Below, piece after piece: positions 349 to 11,367 of a stretch of 11,367 nt of DNA. A program made the position numbers and the translations under genes. The notes below the pieces were generated by a model. It searched no databases. It was not told the origin of the DNA and saw nothing but the letters and a program-made list of their open reading frames with translations. This DNA is from a virus. Taxonomy: Duplodnaviria; Heunggongvirae; Uroviricota; Caudoviricetes. The DNA lies in IMG/VR virus record IMGVR_UViG_2718217897_000002; one strand, 5' to 3'. How positions within the stretch are numbered: the stretch's first letter is position 1; each line of letters begins with the position of its first letter.

Positions 349-1089
349 TTACTTGGTTATCTTTCCCAAAAAATTGGGTGCGTGCCGCTGCAAAGTCTTT
401 TTTAGAAGCGTTCTTAGATTATCCATGGTCATGCCAGCATCATTGTATTCTTCACTGTACTTTGCGATGTTGTTTGCTGCTTTCTCGCACACCGCGGACT
501 GGTTGAGCTTTCCATTCTTTCTAACGTCCTCGCTGGATTCATATAAAGCAATCGCCAGCCCAGCAATCATTTTCCAGGCGGTGTTTTTGCCGCGCCAGTC
601 ACTGGGGAGCGACCCACTTTCTGTTTCCTCTGCTATCGGTTCATCAATGTTGTGATCTTCCAGTTCTGGGAAGAAGCTCACAAGCTCGGACCGCTTGAAA
701 TAAAACGAATCGTAAGACCCATACCAATCATCCTCATCATCGTGATATAAAAAGTCTTCTCCTTTCCTAACGTTGAAAGTCCCTTCTTCCCCCGGTATCG
801 GGCTCTCCCTGTATTCATGCCCCATAGCCAGAAGACCTAAAAACTCCACACACTGCTTTTCAAAGTCTTCATTAGTCGTAAAACCAGATACCCAATCGAA
901 CTGATAAAAGCCCAGCCCCCCTAAAGTATCTGGTTTAGTCTTGCTCAATCTGTAGTTACTTAAGATAGCGGCAGCTATCATTCTTTCATTTTCATTGTTT
1001 AGTCTTGCCAGTTCGCTGATCAGATTACCAAACCAGATTTTATCTTCTGACTCGTTATAAAACGCATCTAGTCCTGTCATCTTAGTCAC
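349..1089 (-). CDS. Hypothetical acidic protein, 246 aa, between the integrase fragment and alpA
   Basis: Long ORF with GTG start at 1089 preceded by SD GGAAGGAGA (6-nt spacer). Overlaps the integrase-fragment stop by 8 bp. No motif I recognise; Asp/Glu-rich central region. Confidence 0.6.
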   Translation of the reverse strand: MTKMTGLDAFYNESEDKIWFGNLISELARLNNENERMIAAAILSNYRLSKTKPDTLGGLGFYQFDWVSGFTTNEDFEKQCVEFLGLLAMGHEYRESPIPGEEGTFNVRKGEDFLYHDDEDDWYGSYDSFYFKRSELVSFFPELEDHNIDEPIAEETESGSLPSDWRGKNTAWKMIAGLAIALYESSEDVRKNGKLNQSAVCEKAANNIAKYSEEYNDAGMTMDNLRTLLKKTLQRHAPNFLGKITK

Positions 1090-1813
1090 GGCGTGTTCTC
1101 CTTCCGAACTCGTAAGGGCTTATGTGTATTTCTCGATTGGCGTCCAGATAATCTGCCCACCATTGAAGCATTAGTTTGCGCTCTTCTAAGTAATCAGCCT
1201 TGTGCTTGTAGGCTCTTTTAACGTCTTTATATTCTTTGTGGCTCATCTGGCGCTCTACTGCGTCCTCCTGCCACAAACCGGACTCCATCAGGGAACTACA
1301 GGCTGTGGCACGGAATCCATGTCCAGTTACGTCCTCTTGCGTGTTATAGCCCATTAAGCGTAATGCCTTGTTTACCGTGTTTTCACTCATCACGCCTTTG
1401 GTGTTTCTTTCATTCGGAAACACAACATCGTAGCTTCCGCTTAGTTCTCTCAACTGCTTTACAATAGAAACAGCCTGACGGCTAAGAAGCACGATATGTT
1501 CGTCTTTTCCCGTCTTTGTGCCACGGGTGGAAAACCTCACACCATCGATAGGCTCTCTTTTTTTAGGGATAATCCACTCAGCCCGATCAAGGTCAAACTC
1601 TTTCCAACGGGCAAACCTTAACTCGCTTGAACGAACAAAGGTCAACATGGTTAGCTCAATGGCAAGGCGGGTAAGAGGATTACCTTTAAAGCTGCCCAAT
1701 CGAGTGAAAAAGTCTGGTAAATCTCTGGGATGTAGTGCGGCATGATGCTTAGTTTCATATTGCATTAGCCGATATTCCTCAGAGCTTGGAAGAATTGCTG
1801 ATGCATATGGCAC
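1082..1813 (-). pseudogene. 5'-truncated P4-type tyrosine integrase (C-terminal catalytic domain only, 243 codons)
   Basis: Translation aligns with the C-terminal half of P4-family integrases (HGFRATACS...KRAYKHKADYLEERKLMLQWWADYLD, parallel to the IntS C-terminus at 6680-7837). The frame is closed by a stop only 8 codons upstream of the first possible start (1838-1840), and no N-terminal arm/core-binding domain is encoded upstream in any frame. Confidence 0.7.
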
Positions 1814-1829
1814 TCTTGCAAGAGCAGCT

Positions 1830-2270
1830 GTGAAACCTCAGCAGTATATTGAAAGAACAGGGAGAACTGCCAATGTACTACGCGATCTTGATGCTGGTTT
1901 ATCCAACGTTACATCAACAGTGTTAAATGCAATTGCCAACTCAACATCAGGTGCCATTGTTGGTGGAGCAGGAGGCGGGGGCGTTGCTGGCGCTGCCGCA
2001 GGTGCTTTAATTGGCGCCGGGTTAAAAGGCGCTGTATCTAAAATTGCCACCACACGTAGTGGTCGGTATGCGATAGAGAAAGCAGTTCAGGAAGCAACTA
2101 AAGCAGTAAGAGCAGGCGGAAGCAAAGAAGCATTAGTGGCGGCTGAACGCAGATTTATGGCAAATAAAGCTGCCGTAAAAGCAATACGTGATACAGTCGG
2201 AAACGAAGAGTTCAATCGCTTAGCGAGGGCTGGCATTGTAGCGTCGCTAAGCGGAATAGCACAGGAGTAA
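1830..2270 (+). CDS. Gly/Ala-rich glycine-zipper protein (146 aa); possibly the 3' remnant of a larger gene
   Basis: ORF with GTG start at the deletion junction. Central segment AIVGGAGGGGVAGAAAGALIGAGLKGAV is a glycine-zipper-like hydrophobic stretch flanked by Ala/Lys/Arg-rich helices. More GC-rich than the neighbouring cassette. Minus-strand ORFs here are Pro/Ala-rich antisense artefacts. Function unknown. Confidence 0.4.
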   Translation: MKPQQYIERTGRTANVLRDLDAGLSNVTSTVLNAIANSTSGAIVGGAGGGGVAGAAAGALIGAGLKGAVSKIATTRSGRYAIEKAVQEATKAVRAGGSKEALVAAERRFMANKAAVKAIRDTVGNEEFNRLARAGIVASLSGIAQE

Positions 2271-2594
2271 TTAATCATCCATGGATGGATTGAGCTTATC
2301 TCGTGTTGATGTGGCGATTTGTCCTACATTTCTAAGCCAAGATTTCAAATCCTTGATATTGTCATTGATTTCATGAATATCTTCTTTTTTTAATCTGTTA
2401 ACATTATTTTCAATAATTTCAATGGATTGCTCAATATCAGATATAGTGAATGATAGTTTGTTCTTCTCATCTTTTATTGAGTTTTTAAGTGCTTCGTTCT
2501 CAGTCTTGAGGTCAGATATCTTTTGTTTTAAAGATGCCAGTTGGTACTGAACCACAATGAGTGCGATAGCTATCACGATAACTGTTGTATACAC
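2271..2594 (-). CDS. N-terminally membrane-anchored coiled-coil protein (about 107 aa)
   Basis: GTG at 2594 is preceded on the minus strand by a strong SD AAGGAGG (plus 2602-2608) with a 5-nt spacer. Product begins with a hydrophobic helix (YTTVIVIAIALIVVQY) followed by a heptad-like Lys/Glu/Asn-rich region. The longer ORF reaching 2810 would overlap the divergent gene and has no SD, so the short start is preferred. Confidence 0.5.
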   Translation of the reverse strand: MYTTVIVIAIALIVVQYQLASLKQKISDLKTENEALKNSIKDEKNKLSFTISDIEQSIEIIENNVNRLKKEDIHEINDNIKDLKSWLRNVGQIATSTRDKLNPSMDD

Positions 2595-2624
2595 ACCAAC
2601 CTCCTTAGTTTTGCGCAGGATACC

Positions 2625-2990
2625 ATGAAAAAAGTTAACATTGGAAACGTACCAAAGATGCTCGTTCCGCTCTTTGAGAGCGGTACAATTGTGTTTTGTA
2701 GAGACTTTCCAGAATGGCAACGCCTGCATCAAAAACTTGGCGTTGACGTGCATGACTCGGACGCCAACGGAGCGTCTCATACAATGAGTAGCGAGAATGG
2801 TGTTTTGCATGTGATAGGCGTGTTCAATGGCAAACTATCTACTATTGCCCATGAGTGCGCTCACATGGCATTCGATATCTGCTCAAGGGTAGGTGTTGAT
2901 GTTGAACCAGGAAGAGCCAACGAGACTTACTGCTACTTAATGAGCAGGCTTGTTGAGTTCTGCGAGCGACATATCAAAAAGCCGGAGTGA
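2625..2990 (+). CDS. Small HExxH-motif protein, possible minimal Zn-metallopeptidase (ImmA/IrrE-like motif), about 121 aa
   Basis: ATG at 2625 with AGGA at 2617-2620. Motif STIAHECAHMAFD (HECAH encoded at 2850-2864) with Glu 19 and 25 residues downstream. The ORF-track start at 2541 would overlap the divergent gene. Stop lies inside a hairpin (2979-2998). Fold and activity unverified. Confidence 0.5.
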   Translation: MKKVNIGNVPKMLVPLFESGTIVFCRDFPEWQRLHQKLGVDVHDSDANGASHTMSSENGVLHVIGVFNGKLSTIAHECAHMAFDICSRVGVDVEPGRANETYCYLMSRLVEFCERHIKKPE

Positions 2991-2998
2991 CCCGGCTT
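2979..2998. terminator. Hairpin between the convergent HExxH gene and the small basic protein gene; candidate bidirectional terminator
   Basis: Stem AAGCCGG (2979-2985) / CCGGCTT (2992-2998), 6-nt loop. On the minus strand it is followed at once by a T-run (plus 2971-2978 is an A-run); on the plus strand it is followed by T-rich GATTATTACTTTTT. Confidence 0.4.
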
Positions 2999-3003
2999 GA
3001 TTA

Positions 3004-3183
3004 TTACTTTTTGCTGTCTGGAGTTCGCTTATCTAATACCCAGCCATGACCTGGCTTTGTTGTTGGTGGAAGCCTTTCGTTGTCCTTGACGGTGGCAAAA
3101 TTGTCTTTCTTACCGCCGCGTGGGCCAACTTCTTGGTATATTCCGCCGTTTTTTCCTGTGTTTTCACCTGGTTTTTTCGCCAT
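3004..3183 (-). CDS. Small basic Gly/Lys/Pro-rich hydrophilic protein (about 59 aa)
   Basis: ATG at 3183 preceded by SD GAGGT (6-nt spacer). Product MAKKPGENTGKNGGIYQEVGPRGGKKDNFATVKDNERLPPTTKPGHGWVLDKRTPDSKK, no hydrophobic segment. It loosely recalls small uncharacterised YjzC-like proteins, but I cannot verify that. The overlapping plus ORF 3046-3240 is judged antisense. Confidence 0.5.
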   Translation of the reverse strand: MAKKPGENTGKNGGIYQEVGPRGGKKDNFATVKDNERLPPTTKPGHGWVLDKRTPDSKK

Positions 3184-3275
3184 GATATACCTCAACATAC
3201 ACCCGTTATTGGGCGATTAAATATTGATCTCATTTTATAAGTAGTCAATATGGCCCAGGTAAATGCAAAAATTAA

Positions 3276-3297
3276 CCCACCGTCAGGTGGTTTTTTT
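3276..3297 (+). terminator. Rho-independent terminator-like hairpin (CCACC-GTCA-GGTGG followed by T7)
   Basis: 5-bp GC-rich stem 3277-3281 / 3286-3290, tetraloop, seven T at 3291-3297. An A-run precedes it, so it could work in both directions. Confidence 0.5.
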
Positions 3298-3348
3298 GTA
3301 CAAATCCTTCAGCCAGTACATAACTACTGACAGATAACCAACGCAACG

Positions 3349-3372
3349 ATCCAGCTTCGGCTGGGTTTTTTT
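3349..3372 (+). terminator. Rho-independent terminator (stem with TTCG tetraloop followed by T7)
   Basis: Stem ATCCAGC (3349-3355) / GCTGGGT (3360-3366), TTCG loop, then T-run 3366-3372. Confidence 0.55.
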
Positions 3373-3561
3373 ATGCCCAAAATTCACCGTAGCCATGCTG
3401 CGGAGATTCCTTGTATCTGGAGCAAATTAAATGACAGATATTATAAATGGGAATTGTTATTTAATAATGTTTGAAAATAAAAATCATGGACGATAGGAAT
3501 AAAGGTATTACTTGTTTTTATTTTTGTAAGTGACGCATTAAGCGCATAAATAATATGCCTG

Positions 3562-3590
3562 TTGATCAAGATTCTTGAGTATTGTAAAAT
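3562..3590 (+). promoter_or_regulatory. Candidate sigma70 promoter for the tailspike operon
   Basis: TTGATC (3562-3567), 17-bp spacer, TAAAAT (3585-3590), in an AT-rich leader about 125 bp upstream of the tailspike start. Confidence 0.4.
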
Positions 3591-3714
3591 AATCGTTTTG
3601 TTCATGTTGCATGGTTTTTAAATGAATAGAAGGTTATTTTTCAAAACAATTGCATCTTTGTCTGCAGTCATTCCGTTTTCTTCAATATCTAAATCTTCAA
3701 ACAGGATGACTAAT

Positions 3715-6300
3715 ATGCCTGATATAACCCCAAATGTTGTGATAGGTATGCCATCGCAACTCTTCACAATGGCTAGCTCTTTTAAAACCGTAGCAAATGG
3801 AAAAATTTATATCGGTAAGATTGACACAGATCCGGTAAATCCAGAAAACCAGATTCCAGTATATCTGGAACGAGAAGATGGTACTTATGTTCAGGTGCCA
3901 CAGCCAATCGTTATCAATGCTGCTGGATACCCGGTATACAACGGACAGATTTCCAAATTCGTTACCGTGCAAGGCCATTCTATGGCTGTTTACGATGCAT
4001 ATGGTACGCAGCAGTTCTATTTTCCGAATGTGCTTAAGTACGATCCTGATCAATTAAGACAACAATTAGAAGACCCGGAAGGTGCTAAAAAATATCATGA
4101 ATTGCAGATGTCTCGGTGGCGTGATGACGCTGACCCTCGCGGATGGGGAGCAAAAGGTGATGGCATCACCGATGACACATTATCTTTTCAAGAGTTAGAA
4201 AAACAAATCACAGGAAGGATTGTTGATCTAAGGGGTAATACATATATAACAGATCAAGTTTATGATGGAAATAAGTATATAAATGGCTATTTTCGCACAG
4301 AGAATCGATTACTGCCAGATGCTGATTTTACTGAAAAAAGAATACAAACTATAAAAAAGGGGATGTATACAGGTTTCAGATCTTCTACTCCTAATCATGT
4401 TAAGTCAGGGTTGCGACTGGCAACAATTAAAAATACTGTCATACAAGGTGCTGTTCTTGATTATTATGACAGTGTTCTTTATTGCTTGGTAAATGTGAGT
4501 GGCAGCGTTAGTTCTGGTGATGAAGTTAATAAAGTTGTTGCTTATAATTGGTTTGGGAATGAAGAGTTAACTCCTCTTTGGGAGACTAAAGGTAGTAGAG
4601 AATTAGGACATCAATGTCTTGGTTTAACCATAGGGCGCGTTGGTTTTCGTAACACAAGAGGCCAGTTACAGATATGGGGGTTAGCTGGCACAACTAAAGG
4701 AGAGGATCGCGCAAAGTATATCACCAGATTCACCCCTACTGATGGTGGTGAAATTGAACCAGAGTTTTTTCTCATATGGGAAGATGGTTACGAGAATCAG
4801 GTAAATGTTTTATGCACCGACCCTATGAGTCGATGGCTGATTACTACAGCAAAACGTTATGTTGGCCCAGGTGAGAGCCCATCAACACCAGATCAAATTC
4901 GCTATTATGTAAAAGTATTTGATACCAGTAAATTTATTAACCCGCAGGCGTACAATTACGATTATCGTAATGAAGCAACTTTTGAATTTGAAATTGCTGA
5001 TTTTGTGAGGGATATGCAAACAGTTGCGTGTGACGGTACTGCTATTTATTTTTGTCAGGCTGGATCTGCATATTCTTCAACCAGAAAATATTTGCATCAG
5101 TACACACTTGATGGTGTTTATCTTGGGGTGCAGCAAATACAGGCAGGTGCAGGAAGAGCCTATGAAATAGCAGATCCAAATGATACCGGAACGCCAGATG
5201 TTAGCAATCTTACATATGAACCAGAAGCAATGTTTTTCCGTATGATTGCAGGTGGGTATGACCTTGTAATGGGGAATACAAATGGCATACCAGATGGTGA
5301 TAGTGGGCGAGAAACTACATTTTACACATTAATGCCACAACAGGTAATGCATGTAAAAACAACATCAAGAAATCAGCCTGGTATTATCATTGATTCAACC
5401 CATGATATTGTCACTAACTCTGGTTTGTTAAGCCTTGGTAAAATTATGCCTGGTGGTGAAGTCATAGAGCAGGCAAACCTTGATGACAAAGGATTCACTG
5501 TTTCGAGGGCAACAACACAAGCCGCCCGTTATGATGCAAAGAATACGTTACGGAATGTAACTTTTCATGTTAGTGAAAAAGGTGATACCGGTATTTATGA
5601 CTTTACCAATGCTCAATGGATATTTAAATCTCCCTTATCAACATCTTCATATTCGTATATCGGTCAGTCAGCGGAGGTTAATGGCTATATAAGTGCTAAT
5701 AAAGATAATACGTCATCATGTGGGACATCATCTAAACGGTGGACGCAAGTATATGCAACTAATGGGGCAATAAATACTTCAGACCAGACATTGAAAACAA
5801 AGCCACTGACAGTAGAGCAACTTTCAGAAATCATGGAGGTGGATCAGGATGCAATTCTTGACGCATGGGGTGACGTAAATATTATCGTTTACCAGTGGTT
5901 GTCCGATATTAAGGCTAAAGGTTCGGATACTGCTCGTTGGCATTTCGGAGCAATTGCACAGCAGGTAAGAGATGCGTTTCTTGCAAAGGGGATAGATGGA
6001 ACAAGATTTGGCTTGCTATGTCATGATAAATGGGATGATGAGTACCAACCTGTAATGGCACAGCGCAAGGTGTCATTTATAGCTAAATCCCCTGAAGGAG
6101 AAGACATCGTTCACGAATACTTTGAAGAATACGATACTGGTGACACGGAACTGGTTGTACATGCTGGTGAGCGTTGGGGATTGCGTCCAGATGAATGTTT
6201 GTGGTTGGAGGCTGCATTCCAGCGAAGAAGGTGTGAACGTATTGAATCTCGTTTAACAGAGCTTGAATTGATAATTAAAAAAGCAAAAGAGATAGAGTAG
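3715..6300 (+). CDS. Phage tailspike protein: P22/Sf6-type N-terminal head-binding domain, central beta-helix (pectate-lyase-like) receptor-binding/depolymerase domain, C-terminal intramolecular chaperone (peptidase S74-like) domain
   Basis: N-terminus [18 protein letters not shown]...[27 protein letters not shown]...[15 protein letters not shown]...NVLKYDPDQ closely matches the P22/Sf6 tailspike particle-binding domain as I recall it. [13 protein letters not shown] (4141-4179) is the usual start of a right-handed beta-helix. C-terminal SDQTLK...[12 protein letters not shown] resembles the auto-cleaving chaperone domain of endosialidase and T5 L-shaped fibres. Start chosen at the ATG with AGGA 8 nt upstream; the ORF stays open back to 3622, with 3706 as an alternative start. 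Confidence 0.9.
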
Positions 6301-6679: not shown

Positions 6680-7837
6680 TCACTCCACCTTTTCATCAAG
6701 CCAATCCGCCCACCACTGCATCATTTCTCTGCGCTTATCGAGATACTGAGCGTGGTTGTAAATTCCACGCACAGAACCGCCGTTGGCATGTGCCAGTTGC
6801 ACTTCAATAGCATCAGCAGGCCATTCGTGCTCGTTCATAATCGTGCTGAATTCATGCCTGAATCCGTGACCGCTTTCCAGACCTTCATAGCCGATTTGTT
6901 TGATCACAAGCAATACCGCGTTCTCGCAGATTGGCTTCTTCTTATCGTTGCGCCCGGAAAAAACAAACTCTGATACTGGTTTAGTGATTGAGCTTAGTGT
7001 AGTGAGAAGTTCAACCACCTGGTCTGACATCGGGACAACATGAATTTTGCGTCCCTTCATCACACTGGCGTCGATGGTGATAATCCTGTTTTCAAAATCG
7101 ACGTTCTTCCATAGCATGGAACGAAGCTCTTTTGTTCTTAGGGCTGTGTAGCGTAAAATTTTGGTAGCAATGAGCGATACGATACTTCCTGAAAATGTTG
7201 CAAGTGCTTTGTTGAATGCCGGGATCTGGTCGGCAGGTAAAAATGGGAAGTTCTTCTTGCGGTATCCCTTCATGGCGTCAGCAAGGTCAGGTGCCGGGTT
7301 ATATTTAGCCCTTCCGGTGACAATAGCGTAACGGAAAACCTCGCCGCATCTTCTGCGGGCTTTGTTGGCTCGCTCCATTGCACCGCGATCTTCAAATCTG
7401 CGGATTACTTCCAGAAGTTGCATCGGCTCAATATCCTGAATTTCAAGGGCGCCGATGATAGGTAAAATGTCGTCATCAAACATTTTGGCAAGTTCATTTG
7501 CATAGCCTACTGACCAGACTTGCTTCTTGTGCTCGTACCATTCCTTGTAAATCGCACAAAAGGAATTGTTGTTAGACGAAGCCTTTTTCGCCTTTACCGG
7601 ATCGATGCCAACCGAGATGTCTTTCCTCGCAGTCCATGCTTTATCCCTTGCCTCCTGCAAAGTCATAAGCGGATATTTTCCGACGGTCAGGATTTTCTCC
7701 TTACCGTCAATCTTGTAGCGAAGCTGCCAGACCTTTTTTCCGGATACAGGGACATAAAGGTACAGGCCATTACCATCGAGAAGGCGGTATGGTTTTTCTT
7801 TCGGCTTTGCTGCTTCAATCTGCTTAACGGTGAGCAT
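6680..7837 (-). CDS. intS: P4-type tyrosine integrase, IntS-like (385 aa)
   Basis: Translation from the internal ATG (MLTVKQIEAAKPKEKPYRLLDGNGLYLYVPVSGKK...) through ...HAQYLDKRREMMQWWADWLDEKVE matches prophage integrase IntS as I recall it. Gene starts 161 bp downstream of the argW 3' end in the same orientation, the classic tRNA-int arrangement. The ORF track extends 12 codons further to a GTG at 7873. Confidence 0.9.
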   Translation of the reverse strand: MLTVKQIEAAKPKEKPYRLLDGNGLYLYVPVSGKKVWQLRYKIDGKEKILTVGKYPLMTLQEARDKAWTARKDISVGIDPVKAKKASSNNNSFCAIYKEWYEHKKQVWSVGYANELAKMFDDDILPIIGALEIQDIEPMQLLEVIRRFEDRGAMERANKARRRCGEVFRYAIVTGRAKYNPAPDLADAMKGYRKKNFPFLPADQIPAFNKALATFSGSIVSLIATKILRYTALRTKELRSMLWKNVDFENRIITIDASVMKGRKIHVVPMSDQVVELLTTLSSITKPVSEFVFSGRNDKKKPICENAVLLVIKQIGYEGLESGHGFRHEFSTIMNEHEWPADAIEVQLAHANGGSVRGIYNHAQYLDKRREMMQWWADWLDEKVE

Positions 7838-7998
7838 GGGTAAAAATCCGGTGGGTAAAATTATTTTATCCACTTTTTACCCGTCATGGTGTGCGGCTGT
7901 CAACGATCTGACGCGAACCATGCCGAACTGTGAATCTAAGGAAGGCTTGATATTCAAGGGATTTTGCGGACTGGTACGGATGGGAGCGAACTGATAAA

Positions 7999-8073
7999 TG
8001 GTGTCCCCTGCAGGAATCGAACCTGCAATTAGCCCTTAGGAGGGGCTCGTTATATCCATTTAACTAAGAGGAC
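7999..8073 (-). tRNA. argW: tRNA-Arg (anticodon CCU)
   Basis: Minus-strand 75-nt sequence GTCCTCTTAGTTAAATGGATATAACGAGCCCCTCCTAAGGGCTAATTGCAGGTTCGATTCCTGCAGGGGACACCA folds as a cloverleaf: 7-bp acceptor stem, D stem GTTA/TAAC, anticodon stem AGCCC/GGGCT with loop CTCCTAA (anticodon CCT), T stem GCAGG/CCTGC with loop TTCGATT, encoded CCA. Confidence 0.9.
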
Positions 8074-10172: not shown

Positions 10173-10311
10173 TTGTTATCCCTCAATTACCACAAGTAAA
10201 AGGAGATAAACCGACAATGACCCGGACGTAATGATGTAAAAATACTGATGTTCGTCACTGACTATTTCCGATATTCAGGCGTTGAAAAATCAAAAAACTG
10301 GAAAAATAATT

Positions 10312-10614
10312 TTAAATATCATCAAAATTAACACCTGGCGCAGATAGTTGATTAATTTCATTTTGATATTTCGCCTGGCGATTTTGAAGTCTTTTTTCAA
10401 CGTTATCTTCGAGATCCTTAAAGTCTTTGTATTTATTTTCAGGATGGTCAACGTCAACTTTGTTAGCGAATAAATTAGAAATTATTTCTTTTACATTATC
10501 GCGTCTAAATTTTGCATCGTCCACTTGAAAATCATATCTTATTGCTCGACCATAACGTTTAAAAACGTCGTTTGGTTCTCTCAGTCTTTCCCCGTTGAGC
10601 TCGTTTACAACCTG
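10312..10614 (-). pseudogene. 3' fragment of a gene interrupted by IS1 (position matches yfdF of E. coli K-12; identity unverified)
   Basis: The minus-strand frame is open from the IS1 left end (10614) to the stop at 10312-10314 (101 codons), with the only upstream stop lying inside the IS1 inverted repeat. The ORF-track start at 10524 is an internal GTG. Lys/Asn/Asp-rich, AT-rich coding sequence. Confidence 0.5.
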
Positions 10615-10669
10615 GGTGATGCTGCCAACTTACTGATTTAGTGTATGATGGTGTTTTTGAGGTGCTCCA

Positions 10670-10945
10670 GTGGCTTCTGTTTCTATCAGCTGTCCCTCCT
10701 GTTCAGCTACTGACGGGGTGGTGCGTAACGGCAAAAGCACCGCCGGACATCAGCGCTATCTCTGCTCTCACTGCCGTAAAACATGGCAACTGCAGTTCAC
10801 TTACACCGCTTCTCAACCCGGTACGCACCAGAAAATCATTGATATGGCCATGAATGGCGTTGGATGCCGGGCAACTGCCCGCATTATGGGCGTTGGCCTC
10901 AACACGATTTTACGTCACTTAAAAAACTCAGGCCGCAGTCGGTAA
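10670..10945 (+). CDS. insA: IS1 InsA (transposition repressor / N-terminal part of the InsAB' transposase), 91 aa
   Basis: GTG start. Product contains the zinc-finger CPSC...CSHC and matches IS1 InsA. Confidence 0.9.
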
Positions 10946-11367
10946 CCTCGCGCATACAGCCGGGCAGTGACGTCATCGTCTGCGCGGAAATGGACGAACA
11001 GTGGGGCTATGTCGGGGCTAAATCGCGCCAGCGCTGGCTGTTTTACGCGTATGACAGGCTCCGGAAGACGGTTGTTGCGCACGTATTCGGTGAACGCACT
11101 ATGGCGACGCTGGGGCGTCTTATGAGCCTGCTGTCACCCTTTGACGTGGTGATATGGATGACGGATGGCTGGCCGCTGTATGAATCCCGCCTGAAGGGAA
11201 AGCTGCACGTAATCAGCAAGCGATATACGCAGCGAATTGAGCGGCATAACCTGAATCTGAGGCAGCACCTGGCACGGCTGGGACGGAAGTCGCTGTCGTT
11301 CTCAAAATCGGTGGAGCTGCATGACAAAGTCATCGGGCATTATCTGAACATAAAACACTATCAATAA
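10864..11367 (+). CDS. insB: IS1 InsB reading frame (catalytic part of the InsAB' transposase made by -1 frameshifting), 167 aa
   Basis: Product matches IS1 InsB. Frame is -1 relative to insA and overlaps its 3' end. The stop codon is the last three bases of the window. Confidence 0.9.
10921..10927 (+). other. IS1 programmed -1 ribosomal frameshift motif (A6C)
   Basis: AAAAAAC lies in the insA/insB overlap, where IS1 is known to shift frame to make InsAB'. Confidence 0.6.

Follow-up and report, generated by a model that had tools for sequence, protein, structure and literature searches.

The ant moron of a prophage remnant at argW of Escherichia coli: hkcB in the sieA slot and the convergent hkcC-orf59a pair

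P22-like phages carry accessory genes in a slot between the ejection-protein gene 16 and the tailspike gene (gene 9). This region was named the 'ant moron' by Villafane et al. (2008), who described ten moron types in sixteen genomes (PMC2629481). In the same study, hkcC and 59a are listed as P22 genes without known function, and an hkcB homologue is noted in epsilon34 (PMC2629481). The P22 slot holds sieA and immI, and a single copy of sieA with 85 bp of upstream DNA is enough for full exclusion (Leavitt et al., 2024, PMC10883804). In phage HK620 (GenBank AF335538), the corresponding genes are annotated as hkcB, hkcC and 'HkcD, similar to P22', hkcD being orf59a. Here, we analyzed a stretch of 11,367 nucleotides (nt) deposited as IMG/VR record IMGVR_UViG_2718217897_000002, hereafter the window, and in particular the three small genes at positions 2271-3183.

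By homology, these three genes are the already named hkcB, hkcC and orf59a of the P22/HK620 type, and the region is the HK620 form of the ant moron, carried in the remnant of a CUS-3/HK620-like prophage of the P22 family at argW. Hence, the locus was already known, both as sequence and as a named region; it is textbook P22-family genome architecture and nothing new in itself. However, the three genes do not behave as one unit. Two modules, hkcB on the one hand and hkcC with orf59a on the other, assort independently among related loci. Altogether, we hold with moderate confidence that the window contains a known moron made of two independent modules, in which hkcB is an allele of the sieA slot and hkcC and orf59a form a pair that includes a zincin. 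The sequence comparisons also provide three leads, namely a promoter-anchored series of alleles at the sieA slot, a mobile hkcC-orf59a pair, and an association between genes of the orf59a family and those for proteases and CapH/CapP-like regulators.

A known moron in a truncated prophage

The moron and its flanks comprise the following features:

2271..2594, minus strand: hkcB (CUS-3/epsilon34 allele), 107 amino acids (aa), GTG start; phrog_5962, E value 1.3e-58; predicted transmembrane (TM) anchor, coiled coil and conserved C-terminal tail
2625..2990, plus strand: hkcC, 121 aa, predicted cytoplasmic; phrog_1365, 1.7e-39; H76-E77-x-x-H80 (HECAH 76-80) and E100; weak Shine-Dalgarno (SD) sequence AGGA
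3004..3183, minus strand: orf59a (HK620 hkcD), 59 aa, basic (13 Lys and Arg against 7 Asp and Glu); phrog_3202, 7.3e-31; SD sequence GAGG
2979..2998: bidirectional intrinsic terminator between the convergent hkcC and orf59a; annotated as tORF59A, 'bidirectional terminator', in HK620 and as the mnt terminator in P22
2217..2253: perfect 10-bp inverted repeat with a 17-nt loop, within the gene-16 remnant and just 3' of the hkcB stop codon; candidate hkcB terminator without a clear T-run
1764..2270, plus strand: 3' remnant of gene 16 (P22-type ejection protein); phrog_770 'DNA transfer protein', 4.1e-23, profile positions 558-666 of 668
3283..3399: immI deletion scar; last 31 nt of mnt (3283-3313; hairpin 3277-3290) joined to the last 17 nt of ant and tANT (hairpin 3348-3367)
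3712..6300, plus strand: P22-type tailspike gene; open reading frame (ORF) open from 3622, head-binding domain from MPDITPNV; Pfam Head_binding 4.5e-61, Peptidase_S74 4.5e-10

Both position and gene content identify the region as an ant moron. The gene-16 remnant lies on one side and a tailspike gene with a Head_binding domain on the other, in the same order as in HK620, P22 and CUS-3, and the closest copies of the three genes, in epsilon34, CUS-3, P22 and HK620, show 96-100% identity. The remnant itself, which includes a Gly-rich ORF called from position 1830, was recognized through its phrog_770 match. The window is part of the E. coli chromosome at argW, with a tRNA-Arg(CCT) gene at 7999-8073, and it shows the order described for the left end of the CUS-3 prophage (attL, int, tailspike, moron, hkcB, gene 16). 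At the nucleotide level, positions 2200-3449 are 95.1% identical to the hkcB-hkcC-hkcD region of HK620. Moreover, positions 2591-3313 share 98.5% identity with P22 13827-14549, which comprises the sieA upstream region, an unannotated ORF that corresponds to hkcC, orf59a and the 3' end of mnt. Therefore, hkcC and orf59a are P22's own genes between sieA and mnt, and not replacements of sieA or immI. A first-pass annotation of this DNA had correctly assigned the three genes to the P22 position of sieA and immI, flanked by gene 16 and the tailspike gene of a P22-type module, but had taken them for an uncharacterized cassette; the identities to HK620 and P22 refute that novelty. The likeness to HK620 extends to the position, the three genes, their orientations, the bidirectional terminator, and the mnt and ant remnants. 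The window differs from HK620 in carrying the CUS-3/epsilon34 type of hkcB and in being a truncated remnant, whereas HK620 is a complete phage.

The three genes are intact at exactly the boundaries first proposed for them. They appear in the ORF listing, and a 96.6% identical locus of E. coli CUVM3 has RefSeq/PGAP genes of the same lengths (324, 366, and 180 nt). These calls, together with the strong PHROG matches, indicate real genes and not chance ORFs. Our data also agree with the initial description of the products as a membrane-anchored coiled-coil protein on the minus strand (N-terminal hydrophobic segment), an HExxH protein on the plus strand and a small basic protein on the minus strand. 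Each gene has its own SD sequence, that of hkcB being AAGGAGG, and hairpins do lie at the convergent ends, namely the bidirectional terminator and, beyond the hkcB stop codon, the inverted repeat (arms at 2217-2226 and 2244-2253). Terminator-like sites in the interval 1800-3800 number 6, compared with 1.6 +/- 1.2 in shuffled sequences. The genes are thus moron-like units with their own signals, as had been suggested, and from these signals we infer that they are transcribed separately. Of note, a promoter scan returned no consensus-grade promoter for hkcB or hkcC. The AT-richness ascribed to the whole cassette applies to hkcB (32.7% GC) but not to hkcC (46.2%) or orf59a (46.7%), which are close to the 44.5% of the window as a whole. 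The three proteins obtained no family assignment in scans of Pfam, NCBIfam and PADLOC, which gave only coiled-coil noise for hkcB and a sub-threshold YjzC match for orf59a.

None of the three proteins resembles Mnt, Arc or Ant, as noted earlier and consistent with our tblastn classification of loci, and the mnt, arc and ant genes are missing from the window. Their loss has left a scar. Window positions 2591-3313 correspond to 2501-3223 of the P22 locus in our set (L002), and the adjoining 86 bases (3314-3399) to L002 4651-4736. Since these adjacent stretches match P22 segments that are 1,427 bp apart, immI (mnt-arc-sar-ant) was lost by one clean deletion. HK620 has the same mnt and ant remnants, annotated as tMNT and tANT. 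An Rfam scan recovered the tRNA only; a sar-like RNA or any other known RNA is thus missing from the moron.

What is left of the prophage is its int-proximal part of about 6 kb. Gene 16 is cut at approximately 1764-1771 and fused to a truncated integrase gene that belongs to a different island. The homology with E. coli prophage genes for a 'DNA transfer protein' begins at 1763-1764, and homology to the left-hand island stops at 1771. This degree of decay raises the question of whether the three genes are relics, idle in the cell and intact only because the decay is recent, with hkcC and orf59a perhaps being dispensable passengers in the phages as well. In line with this view, the remnant offers hkcC neither a late promoter nor a Q gene, nor a promoter-like site upstream of it; many P22-like phages lack all three genes; and the region is not needed for morphogenesis or lysis (Villafane et al., PMC2629481). 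On the other hand, the three ORFs are full-length and almost identical to copies in functional phages, the upstream region of hkcB and the promoter-like site of orf59a are intact, and purifying selection has acted on specific residues across the deep divergence of the families. We therefore regard the relic explanation as unlikely.

hkcB at the start codon of sieA

The region upstream of hkcB provides the main evidence on this gene:

2595..2684, minus strand: upstream region in common with P22 sieA, containing the SD sequence (2600-2606) and the PsieA equivalent (2625-2655), the latter opposite the first 31 nt of hkcC

Of the 90 nt that precede the P22 sieA GTG codon, 89 are found in the 90 nt upstream of the hkcB GTG codon, and the identity stops one base past the start codon. 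The shared part includes the P22 PsieA promoter, annotated at 13861-13891, and the SD sequence AAGGAGG located 5 nt upstream of the GTG (CCTCCTT on the plus strand). By this alignment, the hkcB ORF replaces the P22 sieA ORF exactly at the start codon while keeping the sieA ribosome-binding site and PsieA. At the other end, the hkcB stop codon (2271) abuts that of gene 16 (2270). Hence, hkcB has the arrangement of a sieA locus, that is, it is convergent with gene 16 and placed behind PsieA and the sieA SD sequence.

To what extent this junction is shared by other genes was addressed in IMG/VR loci L006-L085, plus L001, L002, L005, L086 and the window. The SD/start motif CTAAGGAGGTTGGT[G/A]TG occurs at 35 sites in the scanned loci, and the occupants, anchored on this motif and clustered by BLAST, fall into 7 unrelated ORF families. 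Each of these families has at least one hydrophobic segment, either a TM segment or a signal peptide. They comprise SieA, the hkcB family, a 129-aa protein with a signal peptide, and proteins of 62, 75, 106, and 149 aa with one or two TM segments. Furthermore, sieA (6 loci) and hkcB (5 loci) are never found together in the 80 IMG/VR loci of our survey, which were classified by tblastn. The shared junction and the lack of co-occurrence lead us to consider hkcB an allele of the sieA slot, and the slot itself looks like a start-codon-anchored exchange site for envelope proteins. One promoter and SD junction would then serve at least seven unrelated small envelope proteins, among which function is known for SieA alone. 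If the other junction proteins do block DNA entry, they would constitute a ready panel with which to study the passage of podovirus ejection proteins across the envelope.

The window hkcB is 98% identical to epsilon34 gp14 and 96% to CUS-3 hkcB, but only 58% to HK620 hkcB. The family is small, with 21 clusters, all of 107 aa, and a conserved C-terminal tail (WLxNVGxIAxSTRDKxNPS). Residues 1-19 are hydrophobic (Kyte-Doolittle 1.94) and are followed by a heptad-rich region that resembles a coiled coil. In both hkcB alleles, the hydrophobic segment is preceded by no positive charge or by a negative one and followed by lysines or arginine. Because these charges fit the positive-inside rule, an N-out/C-in topology with a cytoplasmic coiled coil is favored. 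HkcB resembles P22 SieA in being a small membrane protein whose gene converges with gene 16 and begins at the same start codon. In contrast, HkcB has 107 aa with one TM segment and a coiled coil, whereas SieA has 162-164 aa and three TM segments (PMC10883804). The two proteins form separate BLAST clusters without sequence similarity, and the FxRYPxEAxxFNK motif of SieA (PMC10883804) is absent from HkcB, which has one hydrophobic segment in place of the three or four TM helices of SieA types A-C. It is plausible that HkcB is a superinfection exclusion protein that acts at DNA entry, with a specificity unlike that of SieA. We also considered hkcB as a spanin or lysis gene; its orientation, promoter and position led us to reject this.

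The hkcC-orf59a pair

HkcC combines an HExxH motif with a downstream glutamate. In 80 relatives with 23-44% identity, H76, E77, H80, and E100 are the sole invariant columns, and HExxH is likewise invariant in 19 closer relatives. In an AlphaFold2 model with a mean confidence score (pLDDT) of 89.3, HkcC shows a four-stranded sheet, the HExxH motif lies on helix 71-88, and E100 starts helix 100-116. Since these residues are invariant and stand on consecutive model helices, HkcC is read as gluzincin-type. It fits the sequence definition of gluzincins (HExxH and a Glu 20 residues on) and, by this definition, is a minimal gluzincin-type zinc protein; probably, it is a peptidase. Thermolysin has the same spacing between H146 and E166 as HkcC between H80 and E100 (20 residues). 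In a phmmer search, the HExxH...E segment of HkcC aligned with thermolysin, although weakly (E = 0.09), and sequence searches of the PDB gave only thermolysin-type HExxH matches at E values of about 0.1-1. Fold matches of the model to zincins are weak, those in BFVD including proteins named SprT-like, metalloprotease and IrrE. In common with minigluzincins, SprT-like/Wss1 proteins and the M78 proteins ImmA, IrrE and CapP, the HkcC model has an HExxH helix, a Glu on the following helix, a small beta-sheet and a length of about 110-120 residues. HkcC also has conserved cysteines near the site (C78, C86, and C103), and a cysteine switch is known in Wss1 and CapP.

The window hkcC is 99.2% identical to the P22 and HK620 copies. 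Its close relatives form 32 clusters, and a profile search yielded 514 clusters (50% identity) at E <= 0.001, nearly all of them stand-alone proteins of 110-130 aa. Two family assignments were tried. As a remote ImmA/IrrE (M78) protein, HkcC had no Pfam hit, and hhalign of its family profile against 14 M78 proteins gave a probability of 21% that covered the motif only, so that this relationship was rejected at profile level. For SprT-like (PF10263), there was no match to the window protein, and only 3 of 80 relatives matched (best 1e-4). In every context examined, hkcC is oriented with the late genes (gene 16 and tailspike in P22-like phages), and no promoter-like site was detected upstream of it by the promoter scan. 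Its orientation with the late operon is more in keeping with a gene of the lytic cycle than with an exclusion gene expressed from the prophage. Paralogues of hkcC with 36-40% identity (ST64T orf-129, L003; mEp021_49, L004; epsilon34 gene 70; phage L Orf129) lie between the lysis cassette and the small terminase gene and have no orf59a beside them, and some P22-group genomes have two copies of the hkcC family.

The partner gene has one further signal in the window:

3220..3248, minus strand: sigma-70 promoter-like site TTGACT-17-AATATT upstream of orf59a, a consensus match only, within the stretch between mnt and orf59a that is 98.5% identical to P22

As the mnt terminator annotated in P22 comes only after orf59a, this gene belongs to the Pmnt transcript there; the window orf59a keeps only the promoter-like site (3248-3220). 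Its product is 98-100% identical to the P22-group copies, with a conserved core (G6, G14, E18, G20-P21-R22-G23, and P39) and three beta-strands in the AlphaFold2 model (pLDDT 87). A structure search with this model gave no informative match, and sequence searches of the PDB returned only designed 'Cake' proteins at E values of about 0.1-1. The protein reaches 19.4 bits on the Pfam profile YjzC (PF14168), for which the cut-off is 25. However, through an unbroken series of homologues it is connected to proteins that carry PF14168 or the UniRef name 'YjzC family protein', and relatives at 47-59% identity carry PF14168 themselves. The orf59a product also has the size of YjzC and a common core, G-x-Y-x-E-V-G-P-R-G-G ... 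L-P-P-T ... G-x-x-W/Y. For these reasons, we consider it YjzC-like, a divergent branch of the YjzC family. The family name gives orf59a no mechanism.

The two genes travel together. In the IMG/VR survey, a convergent orf59a is present in 11 of 11 loci with hkcC, whatever the occupant of the sieA slot or the state of immI; the pair is found with sieA, and also in loci that lack both sieA and hkcB. In all contexts examined, close relatives of hkcC (about >=60% identity) have a convergent orf59a at a distance of 5-14 bp, and for a distant relative in Xenorhabdus the distance is 22 bp. The pair was also found in these settings:

Morganella P22-like prophages: in the ant moron; hkcC 60-61% identical, orf59a 80%
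Siphovirus prophages of Rosenbergiella and Klebsiella oxytoca and a metagenomic contig (L087-L091): between the tail-tube/YdaY and tape-measure genes; hkcC 60-63%, orf59a 76-81%
Xenorhabdus prophages: after the lysis cassette; hkcC recognized by profile only (hhalign 96.8%), with HECVH and a Glu 19 residues on; orf59a 76%

It is also present in Proteus penneri and in a second Xenorhabdus locus. The insertion of the pair as a moron within the tail operons of siphoviruses shows that it moves between phages of unrelated types. Thus, hkcC and orf59a constitute a fixed convergent pair between unrelated phage late operons, made of P22 genes that have had no assigned function since the first annotation.

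The first-pass annotation had treated the three genes as one cassette in place of immI and sieA. Read in this way, they would be co-selected as a new joint system for exclusion, abortive infection or anti-defense, and it is true that all three are contiguous in the window, in HK620 and also in intact prophages of E. coli, for instance in CUVM3, at a slot that is a known site of lysogenic-conversion cargo. Nevertheless, the components assort independently in the locus survey. The survey of co-occurrence in P22-like loci that the annotation had suggested found hkcB with the pair in only 2 of 5 hkcB loci among the 80. In CUS-3, in loci L012, L013, and L041, and in the epsilon34 moron, hkcB is not accompanied by hkcC and orf59a, and the pair stands alone in siphovirus tail operons. 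P22 has sieA, hkcC, orf59a and immI all together, and the absence of immI from the window is explained by a simple deletion with a visible scar. The 80-locus survey thus leads us to reject the three genes as one linked cassette, and a joint system of this kind is improbable.

Relatives of orf59a are also found in other surroundings. We collected 55 species-representative GTDB loci with the orf59a motif (L100-L154) and counted the neighbors within 3 kb. A Peptidase_M78 gene is present in 23 of the 55, mostly immediately divergent, and in the examples scanned it is partnered with or fused to an XRE helix-turn-helix (HTH) domain. In 9 of these 23 loci, a DUF3892 gene lies directly upstream of the orf59a relative; in 6 other loci of the 55, a Peptidase_S8 gene is immediately upstream of it. 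Regulators of the CapH/CapP type have been described upstream of and opposite to cargo operons, DUF3892 operons included (bioRxiv 10.1101/2022.04.27.489752), and they respond to DNA damage (bioRxiv 10.1101/2022.04.27.489752; PMC13228613). In most of the 23 loci, the divergent orf59a relatives occupy the cargo position of switches such as CapH/CapP, ImmR/ImmA and DdrO/IrrE. Unlike these switches, the window has neither an HTH partner nor an M78 protease, and its zincin belongs to another family and is convergent with orf59a. The repeated position of orf59a/YjzC genes beside proteases, as apparent cargo of DNA-damage-responsive CapH/CapP-like regulators, may offer a first functional handle on a very widespread family of mini-proteins. 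Several loci with orf59a relatives are near type I restriction-modification methylase genes. Among prophage loci L095-L099, the relatives in Xenorhabdus lie amid conflict genes (Tad2-like, GhoS, KilA-N, and an N6/N4 methylase), and the one in Salmonella bongori amid GmrSD, HEPN proteins and a DNA methylase.

These neighborhoods could suggest that HkcC serves the immI circuit as an anti-repressor protease similar to ImmA/IrrE and would cleave Mnt, Arc or the main repressor to control Ant or induction, with orf59a as its accessory. The order mnt, orf59a and convergent hkcC in P22 and in the Morganella prophages is in agreement with such a role, orf59a relatives elsewhere adjoin pairs of a repressor and an M78 protease, and cleavage of a repressor by a protease is established for ImmA, IrrE and CapP (bioRxiv 10.1101/2022.04.27.489752). 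However, the pair occurs without mnt, arc or ant in the window, in HK620 and in siphovirus tail operons. HkcC resembles the M78 profile at HExxH only, it lacks the HTH-like linker and GAF domains of CapP and IrrE, and its gene is oriented with the late and not with the regulatory genes. Altogether, an anti-repressor role appears very doubtful.

Possible functions and neighboring genes

In the mechanism that we propose, hkcB would be expressed from the prophage, as sieA is. HkcB would be an inner-membrane-anchored coiled-coil protein at the envelope and would most likely mediate superinfection exclusion at the DNA-entry step, with a specificity other than that of SieA. The orf59a product might be a conflict or stress factor expressed by the prophage, from the Pmnt transcript in P22 and from its own promoter-like site here, and HkcC might be a late-expressed metallopeptidase acting on this product or on its pathway. 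As the two genes are convergent, they would be expressed reciprocally. In the remnant, hkcC is probably silent, because neither a late promoter nor a Q gene is left, and hkcB and orf59a could still be expressible. The initial idea of an exclusion or conflict function is reasonable for hkcB and, by association, for orf59a. A more specific version of the mechanism is offered as a tentative proposal, which we do not expect to be borne out in full. In it, hkcC and orf59a would be an undescribed mobile two-gene conflict module, in which a late zincin cleaves, neutralizes or activates a YjzC-like protein encoded on the prophage strand. The module would be a protease-gated switch for exclusion or self-immunity, the phage counterpart of CapH/CapP-like units, and hkcB would belong to a set of membrane proteins that block injection and replace one another at the sieA start codon.

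Several observations weigh against the reading of the locus as a sieA-slot allele next to a zincin pair. HkcB and SieA have no common sequence, length or topology, and the argument for exclusion consists of position and promoter only. The PsieA hexamers fall below the consensus threshold of the promoter scan, and in CUS-3 hkcB follows other genes in the mnt operon, so that its expression context varies. Regarding the pair, the distant hkcC paralogues ST64T orf-129 and mEp021_49 have no orf59a partner, 53 of the 55 species loci with orf59a relatives lack an hkcC-type partner, and the S. bongori prophage copy of orf59a has no protease gene nearby. The latter two facts indicate that orf59a does not need HkcC. 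In addition, the P22-group copies are highly identical, and many of the linked occurrences are therefore not independent. The PADLOC-DB v2 defense models matched hkcB only through its coiled coil (E >= 6e-4) and did not match hkcC or orf59a. Finally, the searchable literature holds no experiment on hkcB, hkcC or orf59a, and likewise no functional study of YjzC.

A role in virion production, with hkcB as a spanin-like or holin-like lysis accessory and hkcC as a maturation protease or as a modulator of read-through into the tailspike gene, is highly improbable: despite weak PHROG matches of hkcB to Rz-like spanins (E about 1e-3), the position of hkcC paralogues between lysis and terminase genes, and the influence of the P22 moron on late read-through into gene 9 (PMC2629481), the spanin matches are generic to a TM segment with a coiled coil, like those to SMC, FtsL and DivIC, hkcB lies antisense to the late operon behind the prophage promoter PsieA, the genes are missing from many viable P22-like phages, and the region has no role in morphogenesis or lysis (PMC2629481).

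The remaining genes assigned to the prophage and its left-hand neighbor are as follows:

1082-1813, minus strand: second tyrosine integrase gene, C-terminal 243 codons
6301-6588: gene for a 95-aa hydrophobic protein, starting one base past the tailspike stop codon; phrog_1443, 5.8e-55
6680-7873, minus strand: P4-type integrase gene

The tailspike combines a P22 head-binding domain, a weak match to an endosialidase N-terminal extension and, at the C terminus, the self-cleaving chaperone domain Peptidase_S74. No family was matched by its central part, which binds the receptor. The two integrases of the window are 31% identical to each other. To the left of the junction with gene 16, there are an AlpA-like gene (1-192) and a 246-aa gene (349-1089) without a family match, and positions 1-1771 are 99.9% identical to other E. 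coli genomes. The exact junction between the integrase fragment and gene 16 was found in 0 of 5,426 complete E. coli genomes. At the opposite end, positions 10200-11367 are AT-rich (32-36% GC). A 70-aa ORF (10312-10524, minus strand) lies there between an mlaA/vacJ-like gene and IS1-like genes, and the latter, named like their neighbor from the translations only, are a putative InsA-like gene at 10670-10945 and a putative InsB-like gene from 10864 to the end of the window.

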